From: Bacteroidales bacterium
GTDB taxonomy: Bacteria > Bacteroidota > Bacteroidia > Bacteroidales > UBA3663
Assembly: GCA_045617885.1 (NCBI GenBank)
Contig: JAZLJN010000002.1
Coordinates: 10,184-74,183 of the forward strand
Direction: 5' to 3'
DNA: 64,000 nt
Below are positions 19,027-59,428 of the stretch, piece by piece; position 1 is the first letter of the stretch, and each line of letters starts with the position of its first letter. The notes below the pieces were generated by a model that worked only from the letters and a program-made list of their open reading frames with translations, did no database searches and had not been told where the DNA came from. The translations under genes and the position numbers were made by a program.

Positions 19027-19032
19027 ATACAT

Positions 19033-19464
19033 ATGAAATATCCGTCTACTGAATTAAAACCAGAGTGGGTTTATGCTCCAATTACTCCAGATATAGTGGA
19101 ATGGTGTAAATCTTTTGGAGAGTTTTTATCACCTGCGTGCCTAACAGACTCAAAAAAACCTCTAACGACATCGCAATTACGCAGATTCTTTGGAGAAGTG
19201 AAAAGAATTAAGATGCAAAAAGTGATTCAAGGAGATGACGTCGCTATGTTGAATCCACAACTTGCATATGCGGTAGGTCGAGATAAAGATAACTTTGGCA
19301 AGAATAAAACAAGGATTGCTGAGTTTCAACAACAACTGAGCAAAGCTATCAGTGCGATTCGATTCGATGAACATTTGGCTCAAGATTACGATCATTTTAT
19401 ACAAATCTTCGAAGCTATTGTTGCATATCATAAATACTATGGTGGAAAAGAGAATACAAAATAA
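19033..19464 (+). CDS. csm2: Type III small subunit Csm2 (Cas11)
   Basis: 143 aa, helical, with LTTSQLRRFFGEVKRI, NPQLAYAVGR and FEAIVAYHKYYGG motifs. It sits between cas10 and csm3. Confidence 0.75.
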   Translation: MKYPSTELKPEWVYAPITPDIVEWCKSFGEFLSPACLTDSKKPLTTSQLRRFFGEVKRIKMQKVIQGDDVAMLNPQLAYAVGRDKDNFGKNKTRIAEFQQQLSKAISAIRFDEHLAQDYDHFIQIFEAIVAYHKYYGGKENTK

Positions 19465-19473
19465 TAATTGACT

Positions 19474-20112
19474 ATGGAAAGATTGATCAAAAAAATAAAG
19501 GTAAATACTACTCTTGAGTTACTTACAGGTCTTCATATTGGAGGAAGTACAGAAAATGTTGAGATTGGTGGCATAGATCGTCCAGTTATCAAAATAGCTG
19601 TACGAGATAATCAACCTTATATTCCAGGTAGTTCAATTAAAGGCAAGATACGTTGTCTTTTGGAACAAGTAAGAGGCGCCGTAGAGGTAGGTAATGATGA
19701 TTCCGTAAATGACTTATTTGGGTTCGCTCAAAAAGATCTTCCATCTAAACTCATTGTTCGCGATAGTTTCCTCTCTTCTGATTCTGTAAAACAATTCCAG
19801 AATTGTGATAATCTAGATATGCCTTTTACAGAAGGTAAATGGGAGAACACTATTGAACGCGTTAAGGGTGTGGCCAAGAATCCACGTTTGATAGAGCGAG
19901 TACCTGCTGGTGCAGTTTTTAATGTTGAGTTTATCATCAATGTATGGGATGATGAAAAGAACTCTGTAAGACTAATGAATATGTTGGAAGAAGGAATCTC
20001 ATTACTTGAAAATGATTATTTAGGCGGCAGCGGCTCAAGAGGATATGGCCAAGTTCGTTTTGGAGAGTTGCAGAAGACTGAACTCTCTGCAGAGAATAAC
20101 TGGAAAGCATAA
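19474..20112 (+). CDS. csm3: Csm3 (Cas7 backbone RAMP, crRNA-guided RNase subunit)
   Basis: LELLTGLHIGGSTENVEIGGIDRPVIK...PYIPGSSIKGKIRCLLE and C-terminal YLGGSGSRGYGQV. The ATG at 19474 is preferred over the TTG at 19468. Confidence 0.9.
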   Translation: MERLIKKIKVNTTLELLTGLHIGGSTENVEIGGIDRPVIKIAVRDNQPYIPGSSIKGKIRCLLEQVRGAVEVGNDDSVNDLFGFAQKDLPSKLIVRDSFLSSDSVKQFQNCDNLDMPFTEGKWENTIERVKGVAKNPRLIERVPAGAVFNVEFIINVWDDEKNSVRLMNMLEEGISLLENDYLGGSGSRGYGQVRFGELQKTELSAENNWKA

Positions 20113-20129
20113 CCATATAAGCAATTATT

Positions 20130-21137
20130 ATGGCAACACTGAATATATGTAAATTGCACTTCTCGTCACCGTTGCATATTGGTGATCAGAAGAACGATGA
20201 TTATGGCATAAGCCTGAAGACCATCTCTTCTGATACGATGTATGCAGCTATGACTGCGGTACTTGCAAAATCAGGTGTCGGCCTTCCTGATGATGGTAAT
20301 CTGGGATTTACAATCAGTAGCCTTTTCCCGTATTATCAAAAGTCATCAGATTCATCATCGGTCTTTTTCTTCCCACAACCTTTGCAGACAAGATTGCCGC
20401 AGCTGAAAGATCTTGGTGTAAGAAAAAAGGTAAAGAAAGTCAAATGGCTCGACACAGGTTATTTTGAAAAGGTGCTGAAAGGAGAACATCTTTTTGAAGA
20501 TTGCGACAGTACGGACATAAAATGCATACATGGTGAGTATCTTTCCGACCAGTTTGTTCCTAACGACTTCATCGGTAGTCAGGTTATTCAGCGAGTTACA
20601 TTACAATCAAGAGTTGGAGAGAAAGACGCTTTGCCTTATTATGTAGATAGAGTGTCTTTTAAGGATTATTCAGGTCTGTACTTCATTGTAGAGGGCGACA
20701 CAGCAATGTTAGATCAAGCATTGGCTTTATTGAGCCTTGAAGGTATAGGTACGGATCGAAACGTCGGTAATGGATTCTTTGACTATGAGATGACGACATT
20801 ATCATTGGATGTCCCTCAGAGATCAGAATATGCTGTATCATTATCGCTATTGATGCCAGAGTCAAAAGAAGAGTTCGAAAAACTGATCGCATCAGATAAG
20901 GTAGCCTATGATATTGAGCGACGAGGTGGGTGGATAACTACTTACCCATTTCAGCGATTGCGAAAGAATGCGATTTATGGATTCACTCCAGGAAGTGTGT
21001 TCTGCAAAGAATCGGACGGACTTCAATCTATTGGCCGCATCGTTGATCTTCGCCCCAATGTAGAATTTACGAGCGAGAAGCTCCACCCTATCTGGCGTTC
21101 TGGCAAGGCTTTATTACTACCTATTATCATTGAGTAA
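20130..21137 (+). CDS. csm4: Csm4 (Cas5-family RAMP)
   Basis: 335 aa with MATLNICKLHFSSPLHIGDQ and SDTMYAAM N-terminal motifs and GIGTDRNVGNGFF glycine-rich loops. Confidence 0.85.
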   Translation: MATLNICKLHFSSPLHIGDQKNDDYGISLKTISSDTMYAAMTAVLAKSGVGLPDDGNLGFTISSLFPYYQKSSDSSSVFFFPQPLQTRLPQLKDLGVRKKVKKVKWLDTGYFEKVLKGEHLFEDCDSTDIKCIHGEYLSDQFVPNDFIGSQVIQRVTLQSRVGEKDALPYYVDRVSFKDYSGLYFIVEGDTAMLDQALALLSLEGIGTDRNVGNGFFDYEMTTLSLDVPQRSEYAVSLSLLMPESKEEFEKLIASDKVAYDIERRGGWITTYPFQRLRKNAIYGFTPGSVFCKESDGLQSIGRIVDLRPNVEFTSEKLHPIWRSGKALLLPIIIE

Positions 21138-21139
21138 TT

Positions 21140-22876
21140 ATGGAAGTCAATAGAAAATACTACATACAGTTTACAGTAGTTACTCCACTTTGTGTTGGAG
21201 CTGGTAACGAAGCAGAATGGGTGAAATGTGCTGACTATGTAATTAAGGACAGGAAGGTTTATGTCCTTGACTTGCATCGTGTAGCAGATTCTGGGATAGA
21301 TATGTCTCAGTTAAGTATTCTTTTTGTCAACCAAGATCATGACGGTATCGTCAAACTTCTTGGCAACAAGATTAAGATTGTTTCTGCCAGCGTCTTCGAT
21401 CTTCCATGTGATACAGATAATAATATCAAGTCTTTTGAACGAAGTCAGCTTCATAATCTTCCTGTAGTTGCTGGCAGTTCTTTGAAGGGAGCAATACGTT
21501 CTGTTTTGTTTCAGTACTTACGTCAGGATGAAACAAAGAATGAATCAGTTTTCGGTACGATGAATGACGGTACGGATTTTATGCGATTCATAAAGGTCGG
21601 AGATATTGAAATGCCAAAGACGGAGTTATATAATTCCAAGATCTTCAATCTGCATACAGAAGATGGTTCTTGGCATGGCGGTTGGAAACATGCTTTGACT
21701 AATGGTACTAAAGACTATTATAGGTCAACAGGCTTTAATTCTCTTTATGAATGTGTTTCACCGAACAAGTCGGGAGTAGGAACAATCATGCTTAGCCCGT
21801 TGCTTTTTAAGAAAGTATTGGAACGTAGTAACACGATACCTTTTGCTGCCCCCAAACAGAAGATCCTTAATGATGATATAAAAACGCTGTTTTCTATTAT
21901 CAATCAGTTTACAAAGCAATATCTCGAAAAGGAGCGTGAATTCTTTGTTCAGTATCCTGCCGATCGGTCGGAACAGATTGTCGAAAGTATTGATCAGCTG
22001 ATGGCATCTATTCCAGCAGATAACTCTTCGTGTCTGCTGAAAATGTCTGCAGGTGTAGGATTCCATGCCATCACAGGTGACTGGATGCACGAATCTTATA
22101 CAGAAGGGATCTTTGATAGAAAAAGAAACAAAGACAATGATACGCTTCCAAAATCCAGAAAAATAGTAGAGACAAAAGATGGTCTCTCATTCATGGGTTT
22201 TGTAAGACTTTCTTCCGTTGACCAAGAGACATACGAAGAACATCTTGACCGAATTATTACTGAGTATAATAGTCGGATGCAAGACGTCCTCAATCAAAAG
22301 GATGCGAAAAAAGCAGCAGCAGAGGCTCAAAGAATTGCTCTTGTAGAAAAAGAGAGGCAGTATAATGTATTGCTAGCGGAGGCTCTTGCTGCAGAACAAT
22401 CGGAAGACTTCATCTTAGCGCTAGACAAAGCTCGTAAAGCTGCTGAATTGTTCCCAGTCAGGAAGGAACCTCAAGAACTCATCTCTCGATCAGAGACTAA
22501 GGCTGCAGAGCAAAAGTTGAGACAGGCTCAGGCTTCAGCAGAGGCGGCAATGGCCAAGATTCGCGAGGAGAAGGCTTCTGGAGGATTATCTGCTCTTTTG
22601 AATGAGAAGTATGAACAGGGTCCGAACGAAGGCAAGTATAAGGTTCTTACTTTTAAGGTCTGTCTGCAAAAGGTCTCTTCTTGGATGAAAGCTGCAGGAG
22701 TGACGACATTGCCAGAAGATCAAACTCCCGCGCTTATCGAAACTGTTGAACGTTTGATTGCCAATCCGGATAAGAAAGAATCCCGCGATATTGAGAATCG
22801 AAAGAGTAGTATCTGGAAGAAGATAGAGGAGCTGCTTTCTTGTCAGCAGGCGGATGAGTTGTATGCTAAGAAATAA
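21140..22876 (+). CDS. csm5: Csm5 (Cas7-like RAMP) fused to a C-terminal extension of about 215 aa (helical A/E/K-rich)
   Basis: 578 aa. The RAMP core carries TPLCVGAG and PVVAGSSLKGAIRSVLF and ends near ...LSFMGFVRL (about residue 360). Residues 361-578 (22220-22873) are coiled-coil-like plus a small terminal domain. Confidence 0.8.
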   Translation: MEVNRKYYIQFTVVTPLCVGAGNEAEWVKCADYVIKDRKVYVLDLHRVADSGIDMSQLSILFVNQDHDGIVKLLGNKIKIVSASVFDLPCDTDNNIKSFERSQLHNLPVVAGSSLKGAIRSVLFQYLRQDETKNESVFGTMNDGTDFMRFIKVGDIEMPKTELYNSKIFNLHTEDGSWHGGWKHALTNGTKDYYRSTGFNSLYECVSPNKSGVGTIMLSPLLFKKVLERSNTIPFAAPKQKILNDDIKTLFSIINQFTKQYLEKEREFFVQYPADRSEQIVESIDQLMASIPADNSSCLLKMSAGVGFHAITGDWMHESYTEGIFDRKRNKDNDTLPKSRKIVETKDGLSFMGFVRLSSVDQETYEEHLDRIITEYNSRMQDVLNQKDAKKAAAEAQRIALVEKERQYNVLLAEALAAEQSEDFILALDKARKAAELFPVRKEPQELISRSETKAAEQKLRQAQASAEAAMAKIREEKASGGLSALLNEKYEQGPNEGKYKVLTFKVCLQKVSSWMKAAGVTTLPEDQTPALIETVERLIANPDKKESRDIENRKSSIWKKIEELLSCQQADELYAKK

Positions 22877-23133: not shown

Positions 23134-24198
23134 GTCCGAGACTATGTTCCATTAAAATAAGGATTAAGACTGATGTCAAGGAGGCTCTCGTACTCAAACC
23201 TCTTTTTGGTCCGAGACTATGTTCCATTAAAATAAGGATTAAGACAGAATTAAAGTGAAACGATGTGATAAGAAAGATGCACGTCCGAGACTATGTTCCA
23301 TTAAAATAAGGATTAAGACGGACGAAGTTCCTTCATAGCCTCTACTACAAGTAAGGTCCGAGACTATGTTCCATTAAAATAAGGATTAAGACGATTGGGG
23401 TGTAGATAACTGTTGTTTCCATAATGCGTCCGAGACTATGTTCCATTAAAATAAGGATTAAGACCGTGGCAAAACGTCTTTCTGCATCATGATAACGTTG
23501 TCCGAGACTATGTTCCATTAAAATAAGGATTAAGACCAGCAGTCGGAGCAACGCCCGACACAATAGCGTTTGCGTCCGAGACTATGTTCCATTAAAATAA
23601 GGATTAAGACATCACTGTGTAAGCAGAAACGAAGAAAGGAGCGATGTCGTCCGAGACCATGTTCCATTACAATAAGGATTAGGACATCTTTAACGAACTT
23701 TGTTGCAGCAGCTTTGTCAGTCCGAGACTATGTTCCATTACAATAAGGATTAAGACTAGCGCCAAAGACGCTTGAGCTGATAGACATGGCAGTCCGAGAC
23801 TATGTTCCATTACAATAAGGATTAAGACACAATAACAGCAATAAACATGAGCATTAAAGATTTCAGTCCGAGACTATGTTCCATTACAATAAGGATTAAG
23901 ACGTGGAAACAGCCCTTGCTGTTTGACTGACCTACAGCGTCCGAGACCATGTTCCATTACAATAAGGATTAAGACAACTTTGCTGTTGTATAATCTCGAC
24001 CTTCGATGCTGTTGCAAATGTCCGAGACCATGTTCCATTACAATAAGGATTAAGACCAGAAAACCAGAGTAAACACATTGCGACGATATTTCGTCCGAGA
24101 CCATGTTCCATTACAATAAGGATTAAGACAGAATAGTGACTGCTCGCATCTTCTTGTCCTTTAACTGGTTCATGTTCCATTAAACCAAAGATAATTCT
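23134..24198 (+). CRISPR. CRISPR array 1: 14 full 37-nt repeats plus one degenerate terminal repeat
   Basis: Repeat consensus is GTCCGAGAC[T/C]ATGTTCCATTA[A/C]AATAAGGATTAAGAC. Repeat starts are 23134, 23209, 23283, 23356, 23428, 23500, 23574, 23649, 23720, 23792, 23866, 23939, 24020 and 24093. Spacer lengths are 38, 37, 36, 35, 35, 37, 38, 34, 35, 37, 36, 44 and 36 nt. The decayed repeat at 24162-24198 keeps the core CATGTTCCATTAAA. The 3' end ATTAAGAC resembles the 8-nt crRNA tag of Cas6-processed repeats. Confidence 0.97.
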
Positions 24199-24213
24199 TA
24201 ATGCCAGAAAGAT

Positions 24214-25200
24214 ATGGATTTAGTACTTAATACATTTGGGACATCTTTGAATAGAGATAACCAAGGCTTTGTCATCACCAATCAGGACGGAAGACAACGT
24301 ATTCCGGCCCAAGGTATCAGGAGCATTCAAATAGGTAAGGGGGCACAGATAACCAGTGATGCGGTGATGTTGGCTATCGACAATGAAATAGACATTGTTT
24401 TTACCGATCGCTCAGGTATGCCCAAGGGAAGAATCTGGAGTCCACAATATGGATCAATCTCCACTATCCGTAAGGGACAGTTGGCATTCACTATGTGCTC
24501 CGATGCATTAACTTGGATAAAGGAAATCTTAGTTCAAAAAATCTCAAATCAGCAAGCTTTGCTTTTGATGCTTCCTGAACCACAAGATCAATATGTATCT
24601 CTAAAGCAGCAGCATGCCATTGAGAAACTAGAGAATTTCCGGACAAAGATAAGTCAAATCAATGAACCCCAGTTGGTATGTGATGAGGCTTCAACACTAC
24701 GAGGTTTGGAGGGAATGGCATCGAAGTTATACTTTGAGACCATCAATTTATTTTTGCCAGAAGAATATCGTTATGAGGGTCGCTCCCAACATCCCGCAAT
24801 GGATGCTTTTAACGCCTTCCTGAATTATGGTTACGGCATACTGTATTCCAAGATTGAGGGAGAATTGATCAAGGCTGGGGTAGATCCCTACATCGGTATT
24901 TTGCATCGTGATGACTACAACCGCCCGGTACTTGTATTTGATGTGATTGAAATCTATCGTATCTGGGTGGATTATGTAGTATGTAATCTGATGCTACAGA
25001 AAGTAGTGACCGACGAGTTCTACTCCGTGCAGGAAGATGGATCATATTGGCTGGAGACACTGGGTAGAAGAGTATTGATTCAATCGCTTAATGACTATTT
25101 AGAGGAAATTGTCAAAGTTAAAGGGTTAAGCCGATCGCGTAATACACAGATACAACTGTATGCCCAGGATCTGGCACAGCGGTTCAAGAAATATCAATAG
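24214..25200 (+). CDS. cas1: CRISPR integrase Cas1
   Basis: 328 aa with the conserved block HPAMDAFNAFLNYGYGILYSKIEGELIKAGVDPYIGILHRDDYNRPVLVFDVIEIYR. Confidence 0.95.
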   Translation: MDLVLNTFGTSLNRDNQGFVITNQDGRQRIPAQGIRSIQIGKGAQITSDAVMLAIDNEIDIVFTDRSGMPKGRIWSPQYGSISTIRKGQLAFTMCSDALTWIKEILVQKISNQQALLLMLPEPQDQYVSLKQQHAIEKLENFRTKISQINEPQLVCDEASTLRGLEGMASKLYFETINLFLPEEYRYEGRSQHPAMDAFNAFLNYGYGILYSKIEGELIKAGVDPYIGILHRDDYNRPVLVFDVIEIYRIWVDYVVCNLMLQKVVTDEFYSVQEDGSYWLETLGRRVLIQSLNDYLEEIVKVKGLSRSRNTQIQLYAQDLAQRFKKYQ

Positions 25201-25256
25201 ATACAGTCTATAAGATTAGAAGGCATTTTGCACATTATTAATATATATATATAGGT

Positions 25257-26288
25257 ATGTTATCAGCAGGAAGTAATATTCAGTCATTGACGGATGCTTT
25301 GAAACCTATCAGTGTGGAGCATCTGTATCAGAGCCTGGTGTCTCCAAAAGCAGATGTTGAGGCAAAAATCAGGCAATTGAGAATCGTCAGGCAAATCGAT
25401 GCCAAACTCTATGCGCGCAATAAGAAACTGCTGCCCTTCTTTGTGTGTGCTACGTTCAATCCTGCCATACGTCGCACAGAGAATTTTGCCTATACCTCTT
25501 ACTTTGTAGTCGATCTTGATAATCTGGCAGAGCGTCAGTTGGACCTACAGACTTTACGCAACTGGTTAGAAACGGATCCTCGTGTACTACTTTCTTTTAT
25601 ATCTCCCAGTGAAGATGGATTGAAAGTGTTGTTCCGACTCAAAGAGCGCTGCTATGATGCTGGGCTTTATAAGGTATTTTATCAGGAATTTGTACGCAGA
25701 TTCTCACAACAATATCATTTGGAGCAAGTCGTTGACAGCAAGACATGTGACGTATGCAGGGCTTGCTTTATAAGCATTGATACCAATGCATATTATAATC
25801 AGGATGCAGAACCCGTAGATATCAACGATTACTTGAAAGCAGATGATGCCACGGCTTTGTTTGATATGAAGCACGAGCAGGATAGAGCTAACAAAGAAGT
25901 GGATAAACTGCAGAAGGAGGAAAAAGCAGCTGGACCAGCAGAACCTGCTGATGATGAGCTGTCACATATCAAGGAATTGCTTCAGATGCAGCGCCAACGT
26001 ATGCCTCAGATACCAAGATTGCCTATTTATGTCCCTGAACGATTGGACCAGATTATGGATGGATTATGCTCATTCGTTGATGACCAGGGAATGAAGATAT
26101 ATGATATACAGAATATTCAATATGGTAAGAAGATACGGGGTAAATTGGGAAATCGGCTGGCGGAAGTAAATCTTTTCTATGGAAAAAAGGGATTCCGTAT
26201 TGTTCAGACGGTAAAAGGAATTCTTTCTCCTGAATTAAATGAGATATTGGCTGAATTGATACAGATATATCTACGGTTAAACACCTGA
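25257..26288 (+). CDS. Primase-polymerase (AEP/Prim-Pol, BT4734/VirE-N-like); CRISPR-associated Prim-Pol (CAPP)-like
   Basis: 343 aa encoded between cas1 and cas2. It has AEP motif I YFVVDLD (DLD at 25512-25520), a motif II-like SPSEDGLKVLF, and a motif III-like DVCRACFISIDTNAYYN. Confidence 0.65.
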   Translation: MLSAGSNIQSLTDALKPISVEHLYQSLVSPKADVEAKIRQLRIVRQIDAKLYARNKKLLPFFVCATFNPAIRRTENFAYTSYFVVDLDNLAERQLDLQTLRNWLETDPRVLLSFISPSEDGLKVLFRLKERCYDAGLYKVFYQEFVRRFSQQYHLEQVVDSKTCDVCRACFISIDTNAYYNQDAEPVDINDYLKADDATALFDMKHEQDRANKEVDKLQKEEKAAGPAEPADDELSHIKELLQMQRQRMPQIPRLPIYVPERLDQIMDGLCSFVDDQGMKIYDIQNIQYGKKIRGKLGNRLAEVNLFYGKKGFRIVQTVKGILSPELNEILAELIQIYLRLNT

Positions 26289-26293
26289 TCCCG

Positions 26294-26779
26294 ATGCCAC
26301 GCAAACCCAAACCACCGCTTTCTGCGGCAGAGATACTTGAAAAGATAAGAGCAGCAGGATTGTCTGATACGAATGTAATACGAGATAATACGCTGCCTGG
26401 TGCTTCTCAGTTAGAGAGCCTTGATGTCAGACTCCAGCACATTCTTAGTCTGACAACCAACAGACAATCTAAACATAATGGTATGTTATTCTTTGTAATG
26501 TATGATATAGAAAGCAATAAGGTACGTAACCTGGTGGCAAAATACTTGATCCGCCAGGGATGCTTTCGGATTCAGCATTCTATTTATCTGGCCGATATGC
26601 CATGTGACAAATGTGACCAAATTAAGGAAGATCTGGCTCAGGTGCAAGCTGCCTATGATAATCATGATAGTATTCTGGTGGTACCCATTTCTACAGACTA
26701 CCTCCGGTCTATGCGTGTCATCGGACGTGCTTTAGATGTAGAGGTAATCATGCATTCCCAGAACACATTGTTCTTTTAA
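26294..26779 (+). CDS. cas2: Cas2 with an N-terminal extension of about 60 aa
   Basis: 161 aa. The Cas2 core begins at MLFFVMYDIESNKVRNLVAKYLIRQGCFRIQHSIYLAD. Residues 1-62 (MPRKPKPPLSAAEILEKIRAAGL...) are extra. Confidence 0.85.
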   Translation: MPRKPKPPLSAAEILEKIRAAGLSDTNVIRDNTLPGASQLESLDVRLQHILSLTTNRQSKHNGMLFFVMYDIESNKVRNLVAKYLIRQGCFRIQHSIYLADMPCDKCDQIKEDLAQVQAAYDNHDSILVVPISTDYLRSMRVIGRALDVEVIMHSQNTLFF

Positions 26780-26792
26780 TAGCTTTCAGTTT

Positions 26793-28310
26793 ATGTCACG
26801 CACCGATATCAAAAAACTTCAGCAACAAGGGCGTCTTGAAGAGGCTCTTGAGCTGGCAATGAACCAATATACACTGAATCCTAATGCTCTATGGGCAAGG
26901 ACCGATTTGGCATGGGTTTATGACGCGATGTGTAAGAAATCTGCAGCCGAAGGTAAAGTTGAGACGTTTGAAAATGCTTTCCGTCCTATTGCCAATTTAG
27001 GGCTGCTTACGACTGATCAAATGCTCAGCGAAACGCTCTGCTGGAGGTTCCGCTCACTTATGGCTACTTGTAGCGCAAAAATGGAAGCTTTGGATAAACC
27101 TGCGTTTGCTCAGCGGGTATGGGATATGGTTGGCTTGCTGGGAGCCTCACATCCATCAGAAGCCTACTCCGTTTTATGCAAAGCTTTTTATCATTTGCGG
27201 GACAACTGGATGGGCTTCATAGATTTCATGGATTGGTGGGGATGGCAGAACTTCAGACCAGAGGATTACCAGCAAGAGAAGCTGCCTAATGGGAAAACAA
27301 TGCCTATGTCATTGGTCGAAGGCTGTCATATCGCCTATGCAAAACTATTGTTACAGATGGGTGATAAAGATAGAATGTCAGCTTTCTTGCCTCGCCTTGA
27401 GTCTCTTGGAAATTCATATCCAAATATGCTTTATCCAGGTTACTATACAGGTAAGCTTCTGGTCGCAATAGGAGGAGATAAGAAAGCAATGCTTCAGTCT
27501 GTTTTACCATTTGTCAGGCAGAAGTCCGGAGAGTTTTGGGCTTGGCAACTTTTGGCTGAGATGGAGCAAGATGACGAATCTTTTTATATTGCCTGCCTGC
27601 TTAGAGCCGTTAACTGCAAGACAAAAGATGCCTTTTTGGTCAAAATCCTTTATTTGTTGACTAACCTGTCGCTTGCAAAACAAGATTTTGTGGCTGCCCG
27701 AACCTTTTTGTCCCGATATGTGTCATCAAAAATGGATTCTCAAAGCCGGATGCCTTCAGAAGTGTACCATTGGATGAATGAGGCTTGGTATAAAGATAGT
27801 AAAGTTCGGCAAACATCAAGTATTCTCCAACTGGACTATATGCAGATAACAGATGAACTTTTATTTGCTGATATGCCAGAGCACCCCTTATGTATAACTC
27901 ATATAATCAGTGAGGCAAGAATAGCAATGGTTGTGTATGGATATCAGAAAAGCGGACGCATCAGACTGCCTAAATCGATGAAACAAATAAATGTCGGAAC
28001 TTGTCTGCTGGCTCGCATAAAGGAGCCGGTGCCATCAAGCAATAACCTTACAACCTATTCTTTAAGGCAAGTAAGATGGAATGAATTGCCACCTACTACA
28101 TTTTTACGAACAATCGAAGGGAAGATTACTTCCAACCAAAGTAAAACTGCATTCTTCGTTAAATTTGGAAAAGAGTTCGCTTTCTTGCCAAAGTATTTGT
28201 ATAAAAACAAAGAGCTCAATGTGGATGAAAAAATCACTGCACAAATAGTTTATGACTATCAAAAGAACAAAGCATGCTGGTCCTGGCGGTGTATTTCAAT
28301 CAAATTTTAA
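26793..28310 (+). CDS. Uncharacterised 505-aa protein in the adaptation operon. The N-terminal region is TPR-like and helical; the C-terminal region is beta-rich and possibly OB/S1-like.
   Basis: It starts 13 nt after the cas2 stop on the same strand. The N-terminus reads GRLEEALELAMNQYTLNPNALWARTDLAWVYDAM and is helical-repeat-like. The C-terminus reads RIAMVVYGYQKSGRIRLP and GKITSNQSKTAFFVKFGKEFAFLPKYL. I recognised no catalytic motif. Confidence 0.5.
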   Translation: MSRTDIKKLQQQGRLEEALELAMNQYTLNPNALWARTDLAWVYDAMCKKSAAEGKVETFENAFRPIANLGLLTTDQMLSETLCWRFRSLMATCSAKMEALDKPAFAQRVWDMVGLLGASHPSEAYSVLCKAFYHLRDNWMGFIDFMDWWGWQNFRPEDYQQEKLPNGKTMPMSLVEGCHIAYAKLLLQMGDKDRMSAFLPRLESLGNSYPNMLYPGYYTGKLLVAIGGDKKAMLQSVLPFVRQKSGEFWAWQLLAEMEQDDESFYIACLLRAVNCKTKDAFLVKILYLLTNLSLAKQDFVAARTFLSRYVSSKMDSQSRMPSEVYHWMNEAWYKDSKVRQTSSILQLDYMQITDELLFADMPEHPLCITHIISEARIAMVVYGYQKSGRIRLPKSMKQINVGTCLLARIKEPVPSSNNLTTYSLRQVRWNELPPTTFLRTIEGKITSNQSKTAFFVKFGKEFAFLPKYLYKNKELNVDEKITAQIVYDYQKNKACWSWRCISIKF

Positions 28311-28380
28311 CTATTTCAATGACAAAAGCTACATAATTTCCACTTTATAATTACTAGATACTATTTTTCACTTCATATTA

Positions 28381-28555
28381 TTTGGTGAATGAAAAAAGAA
28401 TATGTATCTTTGTCCCACCTAATAATCATTGGTAATGTAGCATTTTGCTACAATTTCCCAAAATGATAGGTACATAATTAGTCTTATTTAGTTCTCGGAT
28501 TTCTTTGAGATAGTCAATGTTTTGATTAGAAATCAGAGTTTTATGTATTTCGGCT
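28381..28555 (+). promoter_or_regulatory. Promoter and leader of CRISPR array 2 (a duplicate of the array-1 unit)
   Basis: TTTG at 28381-28384 and TATCTTTG at 28405-28412. The 119-nt conserved leader spans 28437-28555. Confidence 0.7.
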
Positions 28556-29396
28556 GTCCGAGACCATGTTCCATTAAAATAAGGATTAAGACACGTTGTA
28601 AGCATTGTACGAAGTTCACTTTTCTTGTGTCCGAGACCATGTTCCATTAAAATAAGGATTAAGACCATTGCGGTTGAACCCAACGAGGATTCCAGTAATT
28701 GTCCGAGACCATGTTCCATTAAAATAAGGATTAAGACGTTCTTCTCGATGATGGCGAGGCTGCTCTCGGTGGTCCGAGACCATGTTCCATTAAAATAAGG
28801 ATTAAGACTCCATATAGTATGGAGAACCTCCTTGTTCTCCTTGTAAAGTCGTCCGAGACCATGTTCCATTAAAATAAGGATTAAGACCTGTAAGTTCTTC
28901 TACGGGCGTGTTATTATGATTCTCGTCCGAGACCATGTTCCATTAAAATAAGGATTAAGACCCTGTCTTGTTTTTTCGCGTGGCTGGGAACTGAGAAGTT
29001 GTCCGAGACCATGTTCCATTAAAATAAGGATTAAGACTTACATCCTTTGTTCTGGAAGAAATACTCTGTGTGCTCGTCCGAGACCATGTTCCATTAAAAT
29101 AAGGATTAAGACTTTTTGTGCTAGAACTTTACTGCCAAACTTGCGGTTGGAGTCCGAGACCATGTTCCATTACAATAAGGATTAAGACCGCCTGATCTGT
29201 TACGATTTCGCGAATGTTATCATGTCCGAGACCATGTTCTATTAAAATAAGGATTAAGACACTATTGGTGAAAGTACCCAACTTAACCATTGTACCGTCC
29301 GAGACCATGTTCCATTACAATAAGGATTAAGACGCTTGCCCTTGTTCCATGCACGATAGCAGCGGTCGGTCTCGGACCAACACTCGGTCCGAGACC
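28556..29396 (+). CRISPR. CRISPR array 2: 11 full 37-nt repeats plus a truncated terminal repeat fragment
   Basis: It uses the same repeat family. Starts are 28556, 28629, 28701, 28772, 28851, 28925, 29001, 29076, 29152, 29224 and 29297. Spacer lengths are 36, 35, 34, 42, 37, 39, 38, 39, 35 and 36 nt. The fragment GTCCGAGACC at 29387-29396 follows 53 nt of decayed sequence. Confidence 0.97.
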
Positions 29397-29484
29397 TAAA
29401 GCCTAAAGAGAATTGCCAAATAGAGAGACAAAATGAAGCATTATTCAGAAAGTGATAGATAATAATTAGATTTTTTGACCTTTT

Positions 29485-29516
29485 ATTTGGAATAGAAGTG
29501 TAAATACTTTATATTT
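29485..29516 (+). promoter_or_regulatory. Promoter of the helicase-csx1-csx1-csx20-like accessory operon
   Basis: TTTG at 29485-29488 and TATATTTG at 29509-29516, with a 20-nt spacer. It lies 67 nt upstream of the ATG at 29583. An 8-bp hairpin (ATGCATCG/CGATGCAT) sits in the 5' UTR. Confidence 0.5.
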
Positions 29517-29582
29517 GCGCCTCTATGCATCGTGCATCTCCCGATGCATATTTGAGATACACTTTGCCAATACAGAAAAATC

Positions 29583-31007
29583 ATGGATAACGAAATACAG
29601 CTGACGCATTCCCAAGACCGCGCATTCAAGATGATGATTGGTTTTGTGGAGAATCCGAACCAACGAATCTTCATCCTGAAAGGATATGCTGGTACAGGCA
29701 AGACTACACTGATGAAATGCTTGGTTAACGAGTTGATCTGCCAAAGTAAAGAAGTGAGACTACTTGCCTCTACAGGACGTGCTGCCAAGATTCTTAGCAA
29801 TGCCACAGGGATGGAGGCACACACCATACACAGCCAGGTCTATACTTTCAATGGTTTGAACCAAGACTTGGATAAACTCACAGAGGAACAAGGGAAGACA
29901 GGCTTAATGGCAGGAGAGCAGTTACTACTGGATTTCTCAATGGCTGAAGCTGAAGATGACGAGGAGATAATATTCCTGATAGACGAGTCCTCTATGGTGT
30001 CAGACCAAGAGCAGAAGGTGGTCACCCAAGCCAGATTCGGAAGTGGCAGGGTACTGAAAGACTTGATTGATTGCTATCCTGCGGGAAAGTTTATCTTTGT
30101 AGGGGACCCATGCCAGCTGCCTCCTATTACTCAACCATTCTCGCCTGCTTTATCTGCTGAATATTTTAAGTCGTCTTACGAAGAGGAGGTGCTGTGTGCA
30201 GAATTGACCGAAATCATGCGGCAGCAAAAGGATAATGACCTTATACAGTCTGCTCAGCGTATGCGTCAGTTGTATGCCAATCCTCCTCAAGTAAAGTGGG
30301 CAAAATTCCCTCTAAAAGGTTATAGAAACATACATATCCTATCTAGTCAAACTGAACTGCTTAGCCTTTATATTGATGACATTAAGCAAAATGGATTTAA
30401 CTCCGCTACCCTTTTAGGGTTCACTAACAAACAATGTAATGATCTGACACGGCTGATTCGTCCATCTCTTGGTATCGTTTCCATGACCATCTCGGTGGGC
30501 GACCTATTGCTGGTTACCCAAAATAATTACATCTCTGGTCTGATGAATGGCGATCTGGTAGTGGTCAAGGCGATTGGCGCGATGGAACAGCGAGCTGGAT
30601 TACACTTCCAGACAGTAAGCGTCGAGGAGTTGTTCACTAAAAAAGTATATGAACAGCTGCTCGTTCTGGAGATACTCTATGCCAACGAAACCAATCTGAC
30701 GCAGGAACAGCAGCGAGAATTAATGTTAGAATTCTATTTCAGGATGAAAGCTAATGGCATCAAGCAAAAGAGCAAGGCTTTTAATCAGATGATGATAAAA
30801 GACCCATACTTGAATGCTCTTCGTACGGTTTATGGTTTTGCTTTGACCTGCCACAAGTCTCAAGGTGGCGAGTGGGACAAAATCTACCTTGACATCCCCC
30901 GTTCATTCCCTTTACAGGCCAAGCCATACGTATATCAGTGGATGTACACCGCCATGACTAGAGCCAAACAAGACTTGTTTGTAGTTAATGATTTTTGGAT
31001 ATATTAA
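29583..31007 (+). CDS. RecD/TraA-like SF1 DNA helicase (AAA_30 + SH3-like + UvrD_C-type)
   Basis: 474 aa with Walker A GYAGTGKTT, Walker B FLIDESSMV, GDPCQLPPI, an SH3-like segment VGDLLLVTQNNYISGLMNGDLVVV, and motifs V/VI ALTCHKSQGGEW and YTAMTRAK. Confidence 0.85.
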   Translation: MDNEIQLTHSQDRAFKMMIGFVENPNQRIFILKGYAGTGKTTLMKCLVNELICQSKEVRLLASTGRAAKILSNATGMEAHTIHSQVYTFNGLNQDLDKLTEEQGKTGLMAGEQLLLDFSMAEAEDDEEIIFLIDESSMVSDQEQKVVTQARFGSGRVLKDLIDCYPAGKFIFVGDPCQLPPITQPFSPALSAEYFKSSYEEEVLCAELTEIMRQQKDNDLIQSAQRMRQLYANPPQVKWAKFPLKGYRNIHILSSQTELLSLYIDDIKQNGFNSATLLGFTNKQCNDLTRLIRPSLGIVSMTISVGDLLLVTQNNYISGLMNGDLVVVKAIGAMEQRAGLHFQTVSVEELFTKKVYEQLLVLEILYANETNLTQEQQRELMLEFYFRMKANGIKQKSKAFNQMMIKDPYLNALRTVYGFALTCHKSQGGEWDKIYLDIPRSFPLQAKPYVYQWMYTAMTRAKQDLFVVNDFWIY

Positions 31008-32266
31008 TAATTGGGAACACTGTGAGTAAGGTTTTAGTTTCGTTTTTGGGAACAGGTTCTAATAGCAGAGGATTAGGTGTGAGAGAATATCATAAGGCTC
31101 GCTACCGATTTGAAAATGGAGTAGAGATTGACACCTCTTTTGTTGCAGATGCATTGTTCCGTTTTTATGACATTGACAAGTTAATTCTGCTGGGTACTCC
31201 CAAATCCATGTGGGAACAGGTATATGATGTATTTTGCGACAACAGGAACATACCCAAAAACGAGGACTATTGGCTGGAATTAGCTACCTCTTGTGATAAA
31301 GCCAATGCCAACAGTCCTTTGCATATTCCGAATAAGGAATTATTGGAATCTGCCATAGGAGCAGATTCTCATGTTGTATTAATTCATTATGGCCTCAATG
31401 AACAAGAATTGCAGAATAATGCATCGATAATTCTTGGGATTGAAGATTTTTTGAACACAGGTGATGAGCTATATTTGGACATTACACATGCGTTCCGTTC
31501 GTTGCCATTATATCTAATGAATTTGATTGTTTATCTTCAGAATGTCAGTGCAAAAAAGGTTAAGCTAGCCAATATATCGTATGGCATGCTTGACGTAAAC
31601 AAAGAACTTGGATATGCACCTGTGATTAATCTCTCCGGTATAGCAGAGATCAATGAATGGATAGTTGGCGCATATACATTCCGTCAGTTCGGCAATGGTT
31701 ATAAAATAGCAGAATTGATGAAAAGAAGAGGTGAAAAAAATATGTCGAATAAACTCACCAAATTTTCAGACATGCTTAACCTTAATCATTTGGATGGCAT
31801 CCGGAAGCAGACGCAAGAACTGTCAGCAGTTAAGAATGATAGCCATGGCGCTATTGCAGATCATATTATTCCTGGAGTAATCAATGGCTTTATAGATTAC
31901 TTCCCTAACAACATGCGTCAATCAACCTTTCAACGAAGATTGGCTCAGTGGCATTATAATCATCAGAACTACTCGTCGGCATTTATTGCGCTGGTGGAAG
32001 CAATTATAACTTACGTGTGTGAAGAGCTAGAATTTGACTGGGATCTGATGGAAAAACGAGAACTAGCTAAACGAGTATTACGCCGTCAAGAACCTTCGCT
32101 GATGAGAAACGTGAGGGAGTTTAGCACTGTAAGCAGCTGGTTTTCTAAAGTAAATAGGATCAGAATCAGTGTAGCACATTCTGTTACAAATTCCAAGAAC
32201 AATAGTGAAATGATTTCTTTACTGGATGAAGCCCTGATCTGTTTAAGAATGATAATCAAAGGATAA
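30995..32266 (+). CDS. csx1: CARF-HEPN protein (Csx1/Csm6 family, DxTHG-type), paralog A
   Basis: CARF motifs VLVSFLGTG and LYLDITHAFRSLP. The C-terminal HEPN-like motif is NRIRISVAH (32156-32179, Rx4-6H). The start may instead be the GTG at 31022 (VSKVLVSFLG). Confidence 0.75.
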   Translation: MDILIIGNTVSKVLVSFLGTGSNSRGLGVREYHKARYRFENGVEIDTSFVADALFRFYDIDKLILLGTPKSMWEQVYDVFCDNRNIPKNEDYWLELATSCDKANANSPLHIPNKELLESAIGADSHVVLIHYGLNEQELQNNASIILGIEDFLNTGDELYLDITHAFRSLPLYLMNLIVYLQNVSAKKVKLANISYGMLDVNKELGYAPVINLSGIAEINEWIVGAYTFRQFGNGYKIAELMKRRGEKNMSNKLTKFSDMLNLNHLDGIRKQTQELSAVKNDSHGAIADHIIPGVINGFIDYFPNNMRQSTFQRRLAQWHYNHQNYSSAFIALVEAIITYVCEELEFDWDLMEKRELAKRVLRRQEPSLMRNVREFSTVSSWFSKVNRIRISVAHSVTNSKNNSEMISLLDEALICLRMIIKG

Positions 32267-32281
32267 TATTATAGATTAGAT

Positions 32282-33583
32282 ATGTCACGCAACGTCTTTA
32301 TTTCATTCCTTGGTGAAGGTTTTTACTATAAAACCAAGTACAACCAGCAGACTGCAAATCTTAAAGAAACACGTTTTATCCAATGTGCGACACTCGAGTA
32401 CCTTGAAGCGTCAAAATGGGAACCGGACTCGAAGGCCTACATCCTTCTCACTCAAGTAGCTCATGATAATAACTGGATTGATAATGAAACGAGAAATATC
32501 AACGGTGTAGACCGAGCTTATAATGGTCTGCATAAGGAACTACAGGAATGGGGGGCTCCTTTTGATATCGAACCAATAAATATTCCTAATGGTAATGATA
32601 TGAAGGAGATGTTTTCGATATTCACTACGCTTTTCTCATATCTTCAGGAGGGTGATAAGTTGTATTTAGATATGACTCATGGTTTTAGATATCTGCCTAT
32701 GTTTTTACTTGTTCTGGGTAATTATGCCCAGTTCTTAAAGAATGTAGAGGTAAGAAGTATTACATATGGTAATGTCTTTTCTCCAACTAAAGAAATTTTG
32801 GATCTAATGCCGCTATGCAATCTGCAAAATTGGACAATTGGTGCTGCTGATTTCGTGAGGAACGGTAATGTATCAGAGTTGGTGCGATTATCGGATAAAG
32901 AGATGATTCCAATTATTAAACAAAGTAGTAATAGGGATGAAAACACGATAAAACTGAAGGATTTCGCTCGGAAACTGGATAAGGTAATAGAAGAGATTAA
33001 AATGTGCAGATGCAAAGATGTTATTGAAGCAAAAAATCTTAAGGCTCTCAGACTTATAGCGGTCGATCTGGACATGAGTCAAAATCTACAAGCGTTTGAA
33101 CCTATTCAGGTTAGGATTCTTGATTCTTTAAGAAAATTCTCTTCCGAGCCATCGCTTTTCAATGGATTAGCTGCTGCTGAATGGTGTATGTGTCATGGAC
33201 TATTCCAACAGTCTATTTCATATCTTGAAGAGACAATCGTTTCATTTTTCTGTAAAAAATACAATGTTCCTATTTATAATACAGAAATGCGAACCTTAAT
33301 CAGTAGTTGCTTTGGTTTTGTTGCATACAATACTCCTGAACAAAACTGGAGAGTATCCAAAAATACAGAGGAACGCGAAGCCAATCTCTCTCTCGCTAGG
33401 ATAATTGTAAAGAATCTAGATGAGAAACTTGCTGAAAAATACTGCAATATGGCTGATATCCGGAATGATATCAATCATGCGGGCATGAGAGATAATAGCC
33501 AATCACCGCAAGCTATAAAAAAAGGGATTGCCGCTTCTATAGATTATTTTACTCGTTATTTTGATACCTGGAATGTTAATTAA
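32282..33583 (+). CDS. csx1: CARF-HEPN protein (Csx1/Csm6 family, DxTHG-type), paralog B
   Basis: CARF motifs VFISFLGEG and LYLDMTHGFRYLP. It has a canonical HEPN motif RNDINH (33461-33478). Confidence 0.8.
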   Translation: MSRNVFISFLGEGFYYKTKYNQQTANLKETRFIQCATLEYLEASKWEPDSKAYILLTQVAHDNNWIDNETRNINGVDRAYNGLHKELQEWGAPFDIEPINIPNGNDMKEMFSIFTTLFSYLQEGDKLYLDMTHGFRYLPMFLLVLGNYAQFLKNVEVRSITYGNVFSPTKEILDLMPLCNLQNWTIGAADFVRNGNVSELVRLSDKEMIPIIKQSSNRDENTIKLKDFARKLDKVIEEIKMCRCKDVIEAKNLKALRLIAVDLDMSQNLQAFEPIQVRILDSLRKFSSEPSLFNGLAAAEWCMCHGLFQQSISYLEETIVSFFCKKYNVPIYNTEMRTLISSCFGFVAYNTPEQNWRVSKNTEEREANLSLARIIVKNLDEKLAEKYCNMADIRNDINHAGMRDNSQSPQAIKKGIAASIDYFTRYFDTWNVN

Positions 33584-33929
33584 TCTTACCAATCATCCAA
33601 CAGACACATGGACTGAGCTACAACTACATGAGGCGTGCAAATACGGAGAGATTGTAGATTTACCTTTTCCTGACGTTTCGGACAAAGCGACCCATGAAGA
33701 TGTAAAAGATTTAGTCAAGCAGTTATTTGATAAGATAGTCAAACTTTCTTCAAATAAAGCATGTACAGTTCATGTCATGGGAGAGATGACTTTTACCTAT
33801 GCCATGGTCAATATGCTGAAGGCTCACGGCTATAAGTGTGTGGCTTCTACATCGAAACGAATAGTTGAAATGTTGCCGGATGATTCGAAGAATGTGAGAT
33901 TTGAATTCTGCCAGTTCAGAGAATATTAA
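33573..33929 (+). CDS. Small CRISPR-linked protein, possibly Csx20 family (minimal Rossmann/CARF-like)
   Basis: About 118 aa from the ATG at 33573 (MLINLTNHPTDTWTELQLHEA...). It overlaps the stop of csx1 paralog B and is the last gene of the operon. The family assignment is from memory of the LNLT.H..(T/S)..Q N-terminal signature. Confidence 0.45.
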   Translation: MLINLTNHPTDTWTELQLHEACKYGEIVDLPFPDVSDKATHEDVKDLVKQLFDKIVKLSSNKACTVHVMGEMTFTYAMVNMLKAHGYKCVASTSKRIVEMLPDDSKNVRFEFCQFREY

Positions 33930-34017: not shown

Positions 34018-34023
34018 TGTATA

Positions 34024-59397: not shown

Positions 59398-59428
59398 ATT
59401 CCTCATTGACAATTGAGCCTCTTGGAGG

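Follow-up and report, generated by a model that had tools for sequence, protein, structure and literature searches.

The locus considered here raises a simple question: what is the function of a fourth gene, encoding a 505-aa protein, that stands behind cas1, a primase-polymerase (Prim-Pol) gene and cas2 in the adaptation operon of a Bacteroidales type III-A CRISPR-Cas system? The window, by which we mean the whole 64,000-nucleotide stretch of DNA analysed, contains the following features at this locus, with the evidence for each in brackets.

16815..22876, + strand: type III-A effector module of cas6b-like, HD-less cas10 (501 aa, GGDD intact), csm2, csm3, csm4 and long csm5 genes (Pfam, PADLOC and NCBIfam matches)
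23012-23133: array 1 leader (repeat family D3)
23134..24129, + strand: CRISPR array 1, 14 repeats (repeat detection)
24214..25200, + strand: cas1 (PF01867, E=1.2e-64)
25257..26288, + strand: Prim-Pol CAPP_B, an AEP domain followed by a putative C-terminal TBP-like domain (PF08800; 395 bits to NF040562, the NCBIfam family 'CRISPR-associated primase-polymerase type B')
26294..26779, + strand: cas2, 161 aa (PF09827, TIGR01573)
26793..28310, + strand: gene of the 505-aa TPR-2xS1/CSD protein, TOTE TPR-OB subunit, PADLOC PDC-M16B (ORF list, translation, Pfam, PADLOC, AF2, Foldseek)
28434..28555, + strand: array 2 leader, which duplicates that of array 1 with 96% identity (repeat family D3)
28556..29333, + strand: CRISPR array 2, 11 repeats of 37 nt, GTCCGAGACCATGTTCCATTAAAATAAGGATTAAGAC (repeat detection)
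29583..31007, + strand: SF1B RecD-like helicase, 474 aa, TOTE/PDC-M16A-type without the C-terminal TBP region (PDLC04475)
30995-32266, + strand: csx1 (PADLOC CARF-HEPN/Csx1, PDLC01826 E=4e-122; TIGR02221)
32282-33583, + strand: second csx1 (PADLOC / NCBIfam)
33561-33929, + strand: csx20 (PADLOC Csx20)

The last three of these (30995..33929) are ancillary type III effector genes. The 505-aa ORF begins with an ATG 13 nt beyond the end of cas2, and 245 nt separate its stop codon from the first repeat of array 2, so that the placement given by an earlier, sequence-only reading of this DNA agrees with ours, as does its naming of the neighbours as Cas1, Prim-Pol and Cas2 (PF01867, NF040562 and PF09827, respectively). 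A word-indexed search with the protein retrieved 69 homologs, and an exhaustive profile search returned 2131 clusters at 50% identity with E<=1e-3 (1007 clusters at E<=1e-30). Comparison with a 70%-identical ortholog (locus L001) gave a dN/dS of ~0.13 with dS near saturation, this being the single usable pair, since dS was saturated in the others. Given the abundance of homologs and this low ratio, a chance ORF is dismissed and the gene is real. A scan of viral contigs turned up no relatives, and there is therefore no sign of a phage-borne gene. A scan of positions 24000-29700 for sigma-70 promoters and intrinsic terminators, which is uninformative for Bacteroidota promoters, found sites no more often than in shuffled sequence, and no intrinsic terminator between cas2 and the 505-aa gene.

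With regard to identity, the PADLOC profile PDLC04477 (PDC-M16B) matches the protein essentially from end to end (E=4.7e-107, residues 1-503 against profile positions 1-500 of 501). Pfam places DUF7017 (PF22860) at residues 214-340 (E=2.5e-29, above the cut-off), TPR_19 at residues 10-53, and S1CSD-TOTE-2 at residues 439-503 with 26.4 bits against a cut-off of 27; the combination of PF22860, PF22708 and PF22707 is present on homologs. The protein is thus the TPR-(S1/CSD)x2 subunit of the TOTE / PDC-M16 family, a family that is already known, but that has been described computationally only; a literature search found neither 'DUF7017' nor 'PDC-M16' in any of the papers it covered. The sequence-only reading had been unable to assign the protein to a named Cas family, had recognised no catalytic motif, and had remarked that TPR plus OB architectures occur in other conflict systems. 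Each of these observations stands: NCBIfam returned 0 families, PDC-M16B was the only PADLOC match and none came from the cas models, the protein is predicted to be non-catalytic, and the conflict system in question proves to be TOTE. A sequence search against the PDB gave no real relatives, its designer-PPR matches having zero qualifying stretches.

The AF2 model of the protein (pLDDT 92.6, pTM 0.82) divides into three parts.

26793..27863, + strand: N-terminal alpha-solenoid / TPR-like region, residues 1-357, including the DUF7017 segment (AF2 helices, Foldseek, Pfam)
27882..28073, + strand: first S1/CSD-like beta barrel, residues 364-427 (AF2 strands 364-372, 377-383, 386-391, 404-409 and 421-427)
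28104..28304, + strand: second S1/CSD-like beta barrel, residues 438-504 (Pfam S1CSD-TOTE-2, AF2 strands)

Residues 1-357 are modelled as entirely helical, and a Foldseek search of the PDB returned TPR superhelices (CTR9, consensus TPR, OGT and Ski3), with RNase II, an enzyme in which CSD and S1 domains are present, at rank 42. The solenoid carries an E-F-W-x-W motif at residues 247-251 that is family-invariant, with K244, W249 and W251 as invariant columns. Both C-terminal barrels are five-stranded, and they coincide with the two segments of the beta-rich last ~150 residues that had earlier been likened to S1/cold-shock OB modules; the predicted structure consequently bears out the TPR and the OB features alike, the former having been proposed for the first ~350 residues. 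Pfam S1CSD-TOTE-1 (PF22708) was undetected on the 505-aa protein and detected on homologs P0007-P0031 (30-41% identity), and the first barrel has diverged in the window clade. A DUF7017 solenoid, two OB domains in the AF2 model and full-length profile similarity, by which the TOTE TPR-S1/CSD family is recognised, are all present.

TOTE is a widespread predicted conflict system of TPR, OB, TBP and Effector components (Aravind, Iyer & Burroughs 2022, cited in PMC12458937), and most homologs of the 505-aa protein are found in such a setting. Among 80 species genomes, an SF1 helicase(-TBP) gene lies directly upstream of the homolog in 76 (median gap -11 nt), RT, HisKin or iREC genes stand beside it in 52, and no cas genes occur within 10 kb in 75, most of these being canonical TOTE operons; in the remaining 5 the homolog is cas-linked. 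The window protein shares with the TOTE TPR-OB subunit / PDC-M16B its family, the full-length profile match, the solenoid with two S1/CSD barrels and the invariant residues. Unlike the canonical homologs, however, it is encoded by the last gene of a cas1/Prim-Pol/cas2 operon with no helicase-TBP gene upstream, and the type III-A locus is without the RT, HisKin-conflict and iREC genes found near canonical TOTE; indeed, no TOTE effector genes (RT, HisKin-conflict, iREC, RNase H and similar) were found anywhere within the window. A TBP-TOTE-like domain is instead indicated on CAPP_B, encoded two genes upstream, and the TBP component of TOTE is in this form arguably present as well.

The co-occurrence of homologs with cas genes, which had been proposed as a check on any link to CRISPR, gives a divided answer. 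The family as a whole resides mostly outside CRISPR loci, whereas type III-A loci are the consistent setting of the clade closest to the window protein. We identified ~15 distinct cas-linked loci in at least 9 gene arrangements, with 28-70% identity to the window protein, all of them type III-A; a metagenome scan with the close-clade alignment gave 9 loci, with L089 and L090 the informative two. Writing TARGET for the 505-aa protein or its homolog, the order cas1-CAPP_B-cas2-TARGET with gaps of 11-13 nt is shared by the window, L001, L006, L007 and L108 (50-70% amino acid identity). Elsewhere the order is TARGET-cas2-cas1-CAPP_B, with TARGET and cas2 overlapping by 4 nt, array-TARGET-TerB-like-cas1-CAPP_B-cas2 (L078), cas1-CAPP-helicaseTBP-TARGET-cas6-cas10 (L099/L100), helicaseTBP-TARGET-cas6-cas10...csx20 (L089, L090, L011) or csx1-csx20-TARGET (L008), and L098, L018 and L088 show further arrangements near cas genes. 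RT, HisKin or iREC genes occur in 0 of the ~15 cas-linked loci versus 52 of 75 others (Fisher p=3e-7; p=0.004 for the genome set alone), and a neighbour-joining tree groups the cas-linked forms around the window protein. Conserved placement in cas operons, the operational mark of a CRISPR-associated accessory gene, is thus found across divergent lineages in this sub-branch only, and as a plain count of loci. Within these bounds, the window protein's branch has shed the TOTE effector genes and sits inside type III-A CRISPR-Cas loci of Bacteroidales.

A second TOTE-related component of the locus is the helicase encoded beyond array 2, 1.27 kb downstream of the 505-aa gene. PDLC04475 (PDC-M16A) matches it over profile positions 9-485 of 721 (E=4e-119), and it is 30-34% identical over 470 aa to helicase-TBP proteins, from which it appears, on sequence grounds, to be a TOTE helicase minus the TBP domain. 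The M16A and M16B profiles both match in the window, M16A in a shortened form, in the reverse of the canonical order and with a CRISPR array between them. The window helicase is 54-64% identical to the helicase of L102/L103. Its ortholog in standard Bacteroides type III-A loci, where no TPR-S1CSD gene exists at all, stands before cas1. Two other candidates for missing TOTE parts were rejected. The ORF at 30995-32266 overlaps the helicase gene's end and might have been a split-off TBP half, but it codes for a whole Csx1 CARF-HEPN protein, and orthologous helicases elsewhere likewise end at ~475 aa; the 676-aa helicase downstream of the gene in L001 is of the Pif1 type, is not a BLAST match of the window helicase, and entered the TOTE-type helicase cluster by single linkage only.

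The third component is less overt.

26019..26285, + strand: TBP-TOTE-like C-terminal domain of CAPP_B, residues ~255-343, as predicted (PF22721, hhalign, AF2, Foldseek)

PF22721 (TBP-TOTE) matches 34 of 45 CAPP_B proteins at E<=1, the best at 1.6e-6 and the window CAPP_B at a sub-threshold 0.033, and a precomputed PF22721 annotation exists for P0161, P0172 and P0178. Profile-profile alignment of CAPP_B C-termini with those of TOTE helicases gave a probability of 83% (hhalign, E=9.5e-6). The AF2 model of the domain has an alpha-4beta-alpha topology, and its top Foldseek match is RnlA (~80 columns, rmsd 2.5-3.3), whose N-terminal domains we take to be TBP-like. HMMs that we built for the TBP region of the helicases and for the C-terminus of CAPP_B produced zero cross-matches, and the kinship is visible only through the Pfam TBP-TOTE model, profile-profile comparison and the fold. 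From these comparisons the CAPP_B C-terminus appears to be a TBP-TOTE-like domain.

The sequence-only reading had left it open whether the 505-aa protein assists adaptation or comes from a self-standing defence gene that happens to lie in the locus; neither option is fully right as put. The nearest clade occupies type III-A loci in a variety of gene orders, the effector genes are lost from it, and it has TOTE-derived neighbours; the evidence thus points to co-option of the TPR-S1/CSD gene into CRISPR loci rather than to accidental lodging. We put it at an even chance that the 505-aa protein is a co-opted CRISPR accessory that binds single-stranded nucleic acid, and we infer that it would most likely do so in spacer acquisition. 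We postulate that the helicase would unwind invader DNA, that the two S1/CSD barrels would grip the exposed single strand, and that the TPR solenoid would dock on a partner, for which we favour the TBP-like domain of CAPP_B, since canonical homologs all have a TBP-bearing protein as their pair; L008, where 17 kb contain no TBP-bearing gene, speaks against this. CAPP_B might then prime and synthesise the complementary strand to yield a duplex prespacer, which Cas1-Cas2 would integrate at one of the two arrays. A role in prespacer selection specifically is a presumption. CAPP_B is a DNA-dependent primase/polymerase on ssDNA that binds Cas1 and Cas2, in the published system the operon's RecD-like helicase is bound by Cas1 in yeast two-hybrid, and CAPP_A proteins have an N-terminal TPR domain of their own (PMC8211822), so that the combination of TPR and Prim-Pol recurs in adaptation modules. 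The TPR-S1/CSD gene must nonetheless be dispensable for CAPP_B-type adaptation, as CAPP_B forms >1200 clusters versus a few tens of cas-linked TPR-S1CSD clusters, and most CAPP_B loci are without it.

In about half of the cas-linked arrangements the gene belongs to the effector or ancillary operon instead of cas1-cas2, standing upstream of cas6 or downstream of csx20, and an interference or sensing role fits equally well. The protein could be a sensor or regulator of type III interference, recognising invader RNA or ssDNA together with the helicase and promoting or licensing Csm/Cas10 activity, the handling of crRNA or the response of Csx1/Card1; that it follows cas2 in the window would then be incidental. 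In sister clades the gene is indeed outside the adaptation operon, heading the cas6-cas10-csm operon (L089, L090, L099/L100, L011), following csx1-csx20 (L008) or adjoining a csx1-like gene and csx20 (L098). RNA is the classical ligand of S1/CSD domains and also what type III systems sense; the window Cas10, moreover, has no HD nuclease domain, so that this type III-A system depends on ancillary functions. On the other hand, four independent gene orders have the gene abutting cas1 or cas2 with gaps of at most 13 nt or an overlap, and it is in the adaptation module that the TOTE-derived helicase and the Prim-Pol TBP-like domain sit, the counterpart of the former being a binding partner of Cas1 (PMC8211822). 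We regard this explanation as unlikely, though more probable than the two that follow.

It might also be argued that a reduced TOTE/PDC-M16 system, consisting of M16B and the shortened M16A helicase, is lodged in a defence island and acts alone, which we judge to be rather improbable. Defence genes are known to cluster in genomes, and part of the cas linkage of the TPR-S1/CSD gene could be a defence-island effect; at L088, a helicaseTBP-TARGET pair of the canonical clade simply abuts a convergent type III-A locus. The two PDC-M16 components within 1.3 kb of one another in the window, and the predominance of homologs remote from cas genes (75 of 80), are likewise what an autonomous system would lead one to expect. 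However, the usual TOTE effector genes are absent at every cas-linked locus (the p=3e-7 given above), and the tight packing of 11-13 nt in the cas operon is kept in orthologs down to 50% identity. Nor is the helicase a private partner of the 505-aa protein, since its orthologs stand next to cas1 in type III-A loci without TPR-S1CSD, and L001, with the 70%-identical ortholog, has no TOTE-type helicase. That the gene is a decaying remnant of TOTE, stranded by rearrangement and no longer functional, is very hard to credit, for although the S1CSD-TOTE-1 signal is lost in the window clade and the protein is the fastest-evolving of the operon (70% identity versus 84-94% for Cas1, CAPP_B and Cas2), the frame is intact and full-length in five orthologs of 50-70% identity, all family-invariant residues are kept with the low dN/dS already described, and AF2 is confident throughout, both barrels included.

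Returning to an accessory role in acquisition, the locus has the CAPP_B, Cas1, Cas2 and ~475-aa helicase of the CAPP-Cas1-Cas2 modules (Zabrady et al. 2021, PMC8211822), and departs from them in several respects. The published module is without a TPR-S1/CSD gene, and none is mentioned in the main text or the supplementary files searched; in CAPP_A the TPR domain is fused in cis, whereas at this locus a separate TPR protein provides it in trans; and in the standard CAPP_B layout the helicase precedes cas1, whereas in the window it follows array 2, the place behind cas2 being taken by the TPR-S1/CSD gene. That biochemical study gave an evolutionary identity to neither the helicase nor the Prim-Pol C-terminus, and the present comparisons would link the module to TOTE through a TOTE-type helicase, a TBP-like Prim-Pol end and, in some lineages, an added TPR-OB protein. 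A comparable case is TALON, which also unites TPR-CSD and TBP genes of TOTE with different defence machinery; there, however, a YprA helicase and a NERD nuclease take part, the hosts are Chloroflexota, and CRISPR components are absent. TPR-CHAT (Csx29) of type III-E is also a TPR-containing accessory protein of type III CRISPR; it carries, however, a caspase-like CHAT protease, whereas the 505-aa protein has two OB folds and no catalytic domain (no CHAT match in Pfam at E<=10), and the homology extends to the generic TPR fold only.

More tentatively, and with less expectation that it will prove correct than for the accessory role itself, the TOTE core of SF1B helicase, TBP-like domain and TPR-2xS1/CSD protein may capture templates for a polymerase as a general module, the adaptation module being partly TOTE-built. 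The polymerase would be the reverse transcriptase in canonical TOTE and CAPP_B in Bacteroidales type III-A, and the window would be the fullest dispersed version, a five-protein machine producing prespacers from invader single strands. The source of prespacers in type III CRISPR systems is poorly understood; in other CRISPR types RecBCD, Cas3 or Cas4 is the prespacer-generating apparatus, and type III would, if the template-capture proposal is true, gain a dedicated one. What is learnt from the CRISPR loci would probably also account for the TOTE core in its >1000 non-CRISPR occurrences, and the locus is a clear example of module exchange between defence systems.

The 505-residue protein encoded directly after cas1, Prim-Pol and cas2 is a clear member of the TPR-S1/CSD family (PDC-M16B), and as such the 'TPR-OB' subunit of TOTE (TPR, OB, TBP, Effector), a predicted conflict system defined by Aravind, Iyer and Burroughs (2022) according to the summary in PMC12458937. 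Pfam matched DUF7017 at residues 214-340 (E=2.5e-29) and an N-terminal TPR at residues 10-53, and aligned the 'S1/CSD-like domain 2 of the TOTE conflict systems' to residues 439-503 with 26.4 bits, below the cut-off of 27; PADLOC returned a full-length match to PDC-M16B, a candidate-system protein (E=4.7e-107), and NCBIfam held no model matching the protein. The AlphaFold model, built on an alignment of 37 sequences, is confident (pLDDT 92.6, pTM 0.82) and displays a helical solenoid across residues 1-357 followed by five-stranded barrels at 364-427 and 438-504. Foldseek paired this model with TPR superhelices and its C-terminus with RNase II, which contains CSD and S1 domains; no sequence-related solved structure was found. 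On the strength of these Pfam, PADLOC, AlphaFold and Foldseek results, the sequence-only reading had parsed the protein correctly as TPR-like repeats followed by two OB-like modules. DUF7017, S1CSD-TOTE-1 and S1CSD-TOTE-2 recur in almost all of 69 homologs, an exhaustive profile search recovered 2131 clusters (50% identity) at E<=1e-3, 1007 of them with E<=1e-30, and the family identity of the protein is now ordinary.

The family is canonically paired with a TBP-bearing helicase. Scanning a single genome for each species gave 205 relatives, nearly all from Bacteroidota (the viral-contig scan found none on viral contigs), and the best 80 of the 205 were analysed with 10-kb flanks by ORF calling and clustering. 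Immediately 5' of the homolog and on the same strand stands an SF1 helicase of ~650-750 aa, with TBP-TOTE domains at its C-terminus, in 76 of these 80 loci (median gap -11 nt) and in 62 of the 64 whose upstream sequence extends for 2.5 kb or more. RT, HisKin-conflict or iREC genes were present in 52/80, a divergent WYL regulator being usual beside them, and cas genes lay within 10 kb in just 5/80.

The locus around the gene examined here is a type III-A CRISPR-Cas system. The ORF lies as first reported (ATG start), 13 nt after the cas2 stop at 26779; a further 245 nt separate its end from the opening repeat of array 2 (28556).

Features of the type III-A locus
16815-17540, cas6b-like gene
17521-19026, cas10
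19033-22876, csm2 to csm5
23134-24129, array 1 (14 repeats, 37 nt each)
24214-25200, cas1
25257-26288, Prim-Pol (CAPP_B)
26294-26779, cas2
26793-28310, forward strand, TPR-S1/CSD gene (505 aa)
28434-28555, second copy of the leader of array 1 (96% identical)
28556-29333, array 2 (11 repeats)
29583-31007, SF1 helicase
30995-33929, two csx1 genes and csx20

In PADLOC, the helicase downstream of array 2 is matched by PDC-M16A (E=4e-119) over profile positions 9-485 of 721 only; it aligns over its whole length with TOTE helicase-TBP proteins at 30-34% identity and ends where their TBP region starts. Judged by these alignments, it is a TOTE/PDC-M16A-type SF1B helicase minus the TBP region. The ORF that follows was rejected as a split-off TBP, being a complete Csx1. 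This ~475-aa form, which has thousands of close relatives (the top 120 all 471-501 aa), is no local accident. Common Bacteroides type III-A loci (e.g. L102-L105, L109-L111) are ordered csx20-helicase-cas1-Prim-Pol-cas2, with the helicase directly 5' of cas1, and the TPR-S1/CSD gene was absent from those examined. The ~475-aa protein is probably the operon's 'putative RecD-like helicase' that was bound by Cas1 of a CAPP_B system in yeast two-hybrid assays (PMC8211822). In L102-L105 the helicase gene is split (280 + 154 aa).

The window's Prim-Pol is a 'CRISPR-associated primase-polymerase type B' (CAPP_B; NCBIfam, 395 bits), which Zabrady et al. 2021 (PMC8211822) characterised as a DNA-dependent primase/polymerase that works on ssDNA and binds both Cas1 and Cas2. 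The same paper describes its C-terminus merely as 'a diverse smaller C-terminus' and reports that CAPP_A proteins have a TPR domain at the N-terminus; a TPR-OB gene of its own is nowhere mentioned, as far as term searches of the text and supplements show. Suggestive, albeit not conclusive, comparisons point to a TBP-TOTE-like domain in the C-terminal ~90 residues of CAPP_B (~255-343; 26019-26285). PF22721 has a precomputed match in three CAPP_B relatives and gave sub-threshold Pfam matches at E<=1 in 34 of 45 CAPP_B proteins (best E 1.6e-6; window protein, E=0.033), and profile-profile alignment (hhalign) with the C-termini of 75 TOTE helicases reached 83% probability (E=9.5e-6, 112 columns). 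Our own HMMs of the helicase TBP region and the CAPP_B C-terminus did not cross-match. AlphaFold folds CAPP_B residues 260-342 into an alpha / four-strand / alpha unit, whose top Foldseek match is the toxin RnlA (~80 columns, rmsd 2.5-3.3 Å), the N-terminal domains of which we take to be TBP-like.

The nearest relatives of the TPR-S1/CSD protein were located in CRISPR loci, in several distinct gene orders.

Gene orders in loci elsewhere (L-numbers) carrying relatives, with identity to the window protein (TARGET, TPR-S1/CSD gene; helicaseTBP, SF1 helicase-TBP fusion)
Window, L001, L006, L007, L108 (50-70%): cas1 / Prim-Pol / cas2 / TARGET, gaps of 11-13 nt
L106 (36%): TARGET-cas2-cas1-Prim-Pol, TARGET and cas2 overlapping by 4 nt
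L078 (29%): array-TARGET-TerB-like-cas1-Prim-Pol-cas2, then cas6-cas10
L099/L100 (38%): cas1-Prim-Pol-helicaseTBP-TARGET-cas6-cas10
L089, L090, L011 (37-38%): helicaseTBP-TARGET-cas6-cas10-csm2-5-card1-csx1-csx20; in L089 additionally a divergent cas1-Prim-Pol-cas2 and an array
L008 (41%): csm5-card1-csx1-csx20-TARGET-AAA-VWA
L098 (40%): TARGET near csx1-like and csx20 genes
L018, L088: helicaseTBP-TARGET pair, cas genes nearby

The family is recurrently embedded in type III-A loci with its canonical effectors lost: RT, HisKin or iREC genes occurred in 0 of ~15 cas-linked loci versus 52/75 others (Fisher p=3e-7; effector-gene absence within the genome set alone, p=0.004). Most cas-linked forms share one neighbourhood around the window protein when 144 homologs are arranged in a neighbour-joining tree, with the canonical TOTE lineage L010/P0008 interleaved among them; L078/L018 and L088 branch in other parts of the tree, a placement that implies more than one capture event. 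The searchable literature, which did not include the original TOTE review, yielded no description of a TOTE-CRISPR link, nor of a TBP-like domain in CAPP_B. A link of this mechanistically opaque conflict system to the way type III systems acquire spacers is unexpected and can be tested directly.

We are evenly divided on whether the protein acts as a non-catalytic adaptor that holds single strands, docks on a partner and feeds CAPP_B and Cas1-Cas2. The helicase would expose single-stranded nucleic acid, the two S1/CSD barrels would hold it, and the TPR solenoid would dock onto a partner, for which the TBP-like domain of CAPP_B is the favoured candidate; CAPP_B would synthesise the second strand, and the resulting duplex would be integrated by Cas1-Cas2. 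Most CAPP_B loci are without the gene, which counts against an essential role in adaptation. The main rival, that the protein serves sensing or interference, draws on half of the cas-linked arrangements, where the gene stands beside cas6-cas10 or csx genes, and is in our view possible rather than probable. As a system, the window falls outside the definition of TOTE: both a helicase-TBP gene next to the TPR-OB gene and a TOTE effector are missing. An independent mini-TOTE sitting in a defence island seems to us unlikely. A decaying remnant is highly improbable; the protein is the operon's fastest-evolving (70% identity vs 84-94% for Cas1, Prim-Pol and Cas2), and purifying selection acts on its gene (dN/dS ~0.13 against the L001 ortholog, with dS near saturation).

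In L008 (8629-11186), the TPR-S1/CSD gene is followed by genes for a MoxR-like AAA ATPase and for a VWA-domain protein, and no TBP-bearing gene was found across the 17-kb contig. A conserved ORF of 127-133 aa lies 3' of the gene in L078 (11476-11877) and L018 (11503-11883); its match to the TerB domain is weak (E=2e-6). In L001 (7417-9447) and L098 (6870-8912), a 676-680-aa Pif1-type helicase (Pif1 2B domain) stands a few kb from the gene instead of a TOTE-type helicase. L100 (1243-2209) carries a truncated CAPP_B (281 aa) that has mostly lost its TBP-like part and only a 57-aa ORF at the expected place of cas2, with a full helicase-TBP and TPR-S1/CSD gene directly after.

Within the window, Cas10 (17521-19026) has only 501 aa and no HD nuclease domain, its GGDD cyclase motif ('YAGGDDIF') being intact; the short form also follows cas6 in L078, and other relatives have a 770-845-aa Cas10 with HD. 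The Csm5-like RAMP protein (21140-22876) has 578 aa, ~200 more than the equivalent proteins of related loci (367-387 aa), and Csm5 models match just its N-terminal ~130 residues. The two csx1 (CARF-HEPN) paralogues and separate csx20 at 30995-33929 correspond to a csx1-csx20 fusion in related loci (570-571 aa in L090 and L109) with a Card1-like gene ahead, which is absent from the window. Ahead of each array stands a copy of one 159-nt segment, leader and first repeat together (23012-23170 and 28434-28592; 96% identity). The repeats vary at position 10 (T or C) and position 23 (A or C), and the variants are not the same in the leader-proximal as in the leader-distal part of array 1, nor in array 1 as in array 2. 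A 147-aa reverse-strand ORF crossing the array 2 repeats (28426-28869) was rejected as a repeat artefact, as were reverse-strand ORFs at 23345-24180. Tandem arrays at 34023-34321 and 59428-59572 hold 3-4 copies each of 41-42-nt units. The units at the two sites contain related sequence, rich in GC and partly palindromic (GGCGCC / GGACGCCAA motifs), and the arrays resemble intergenic repeats of the REP type, not CRISPR arrays.
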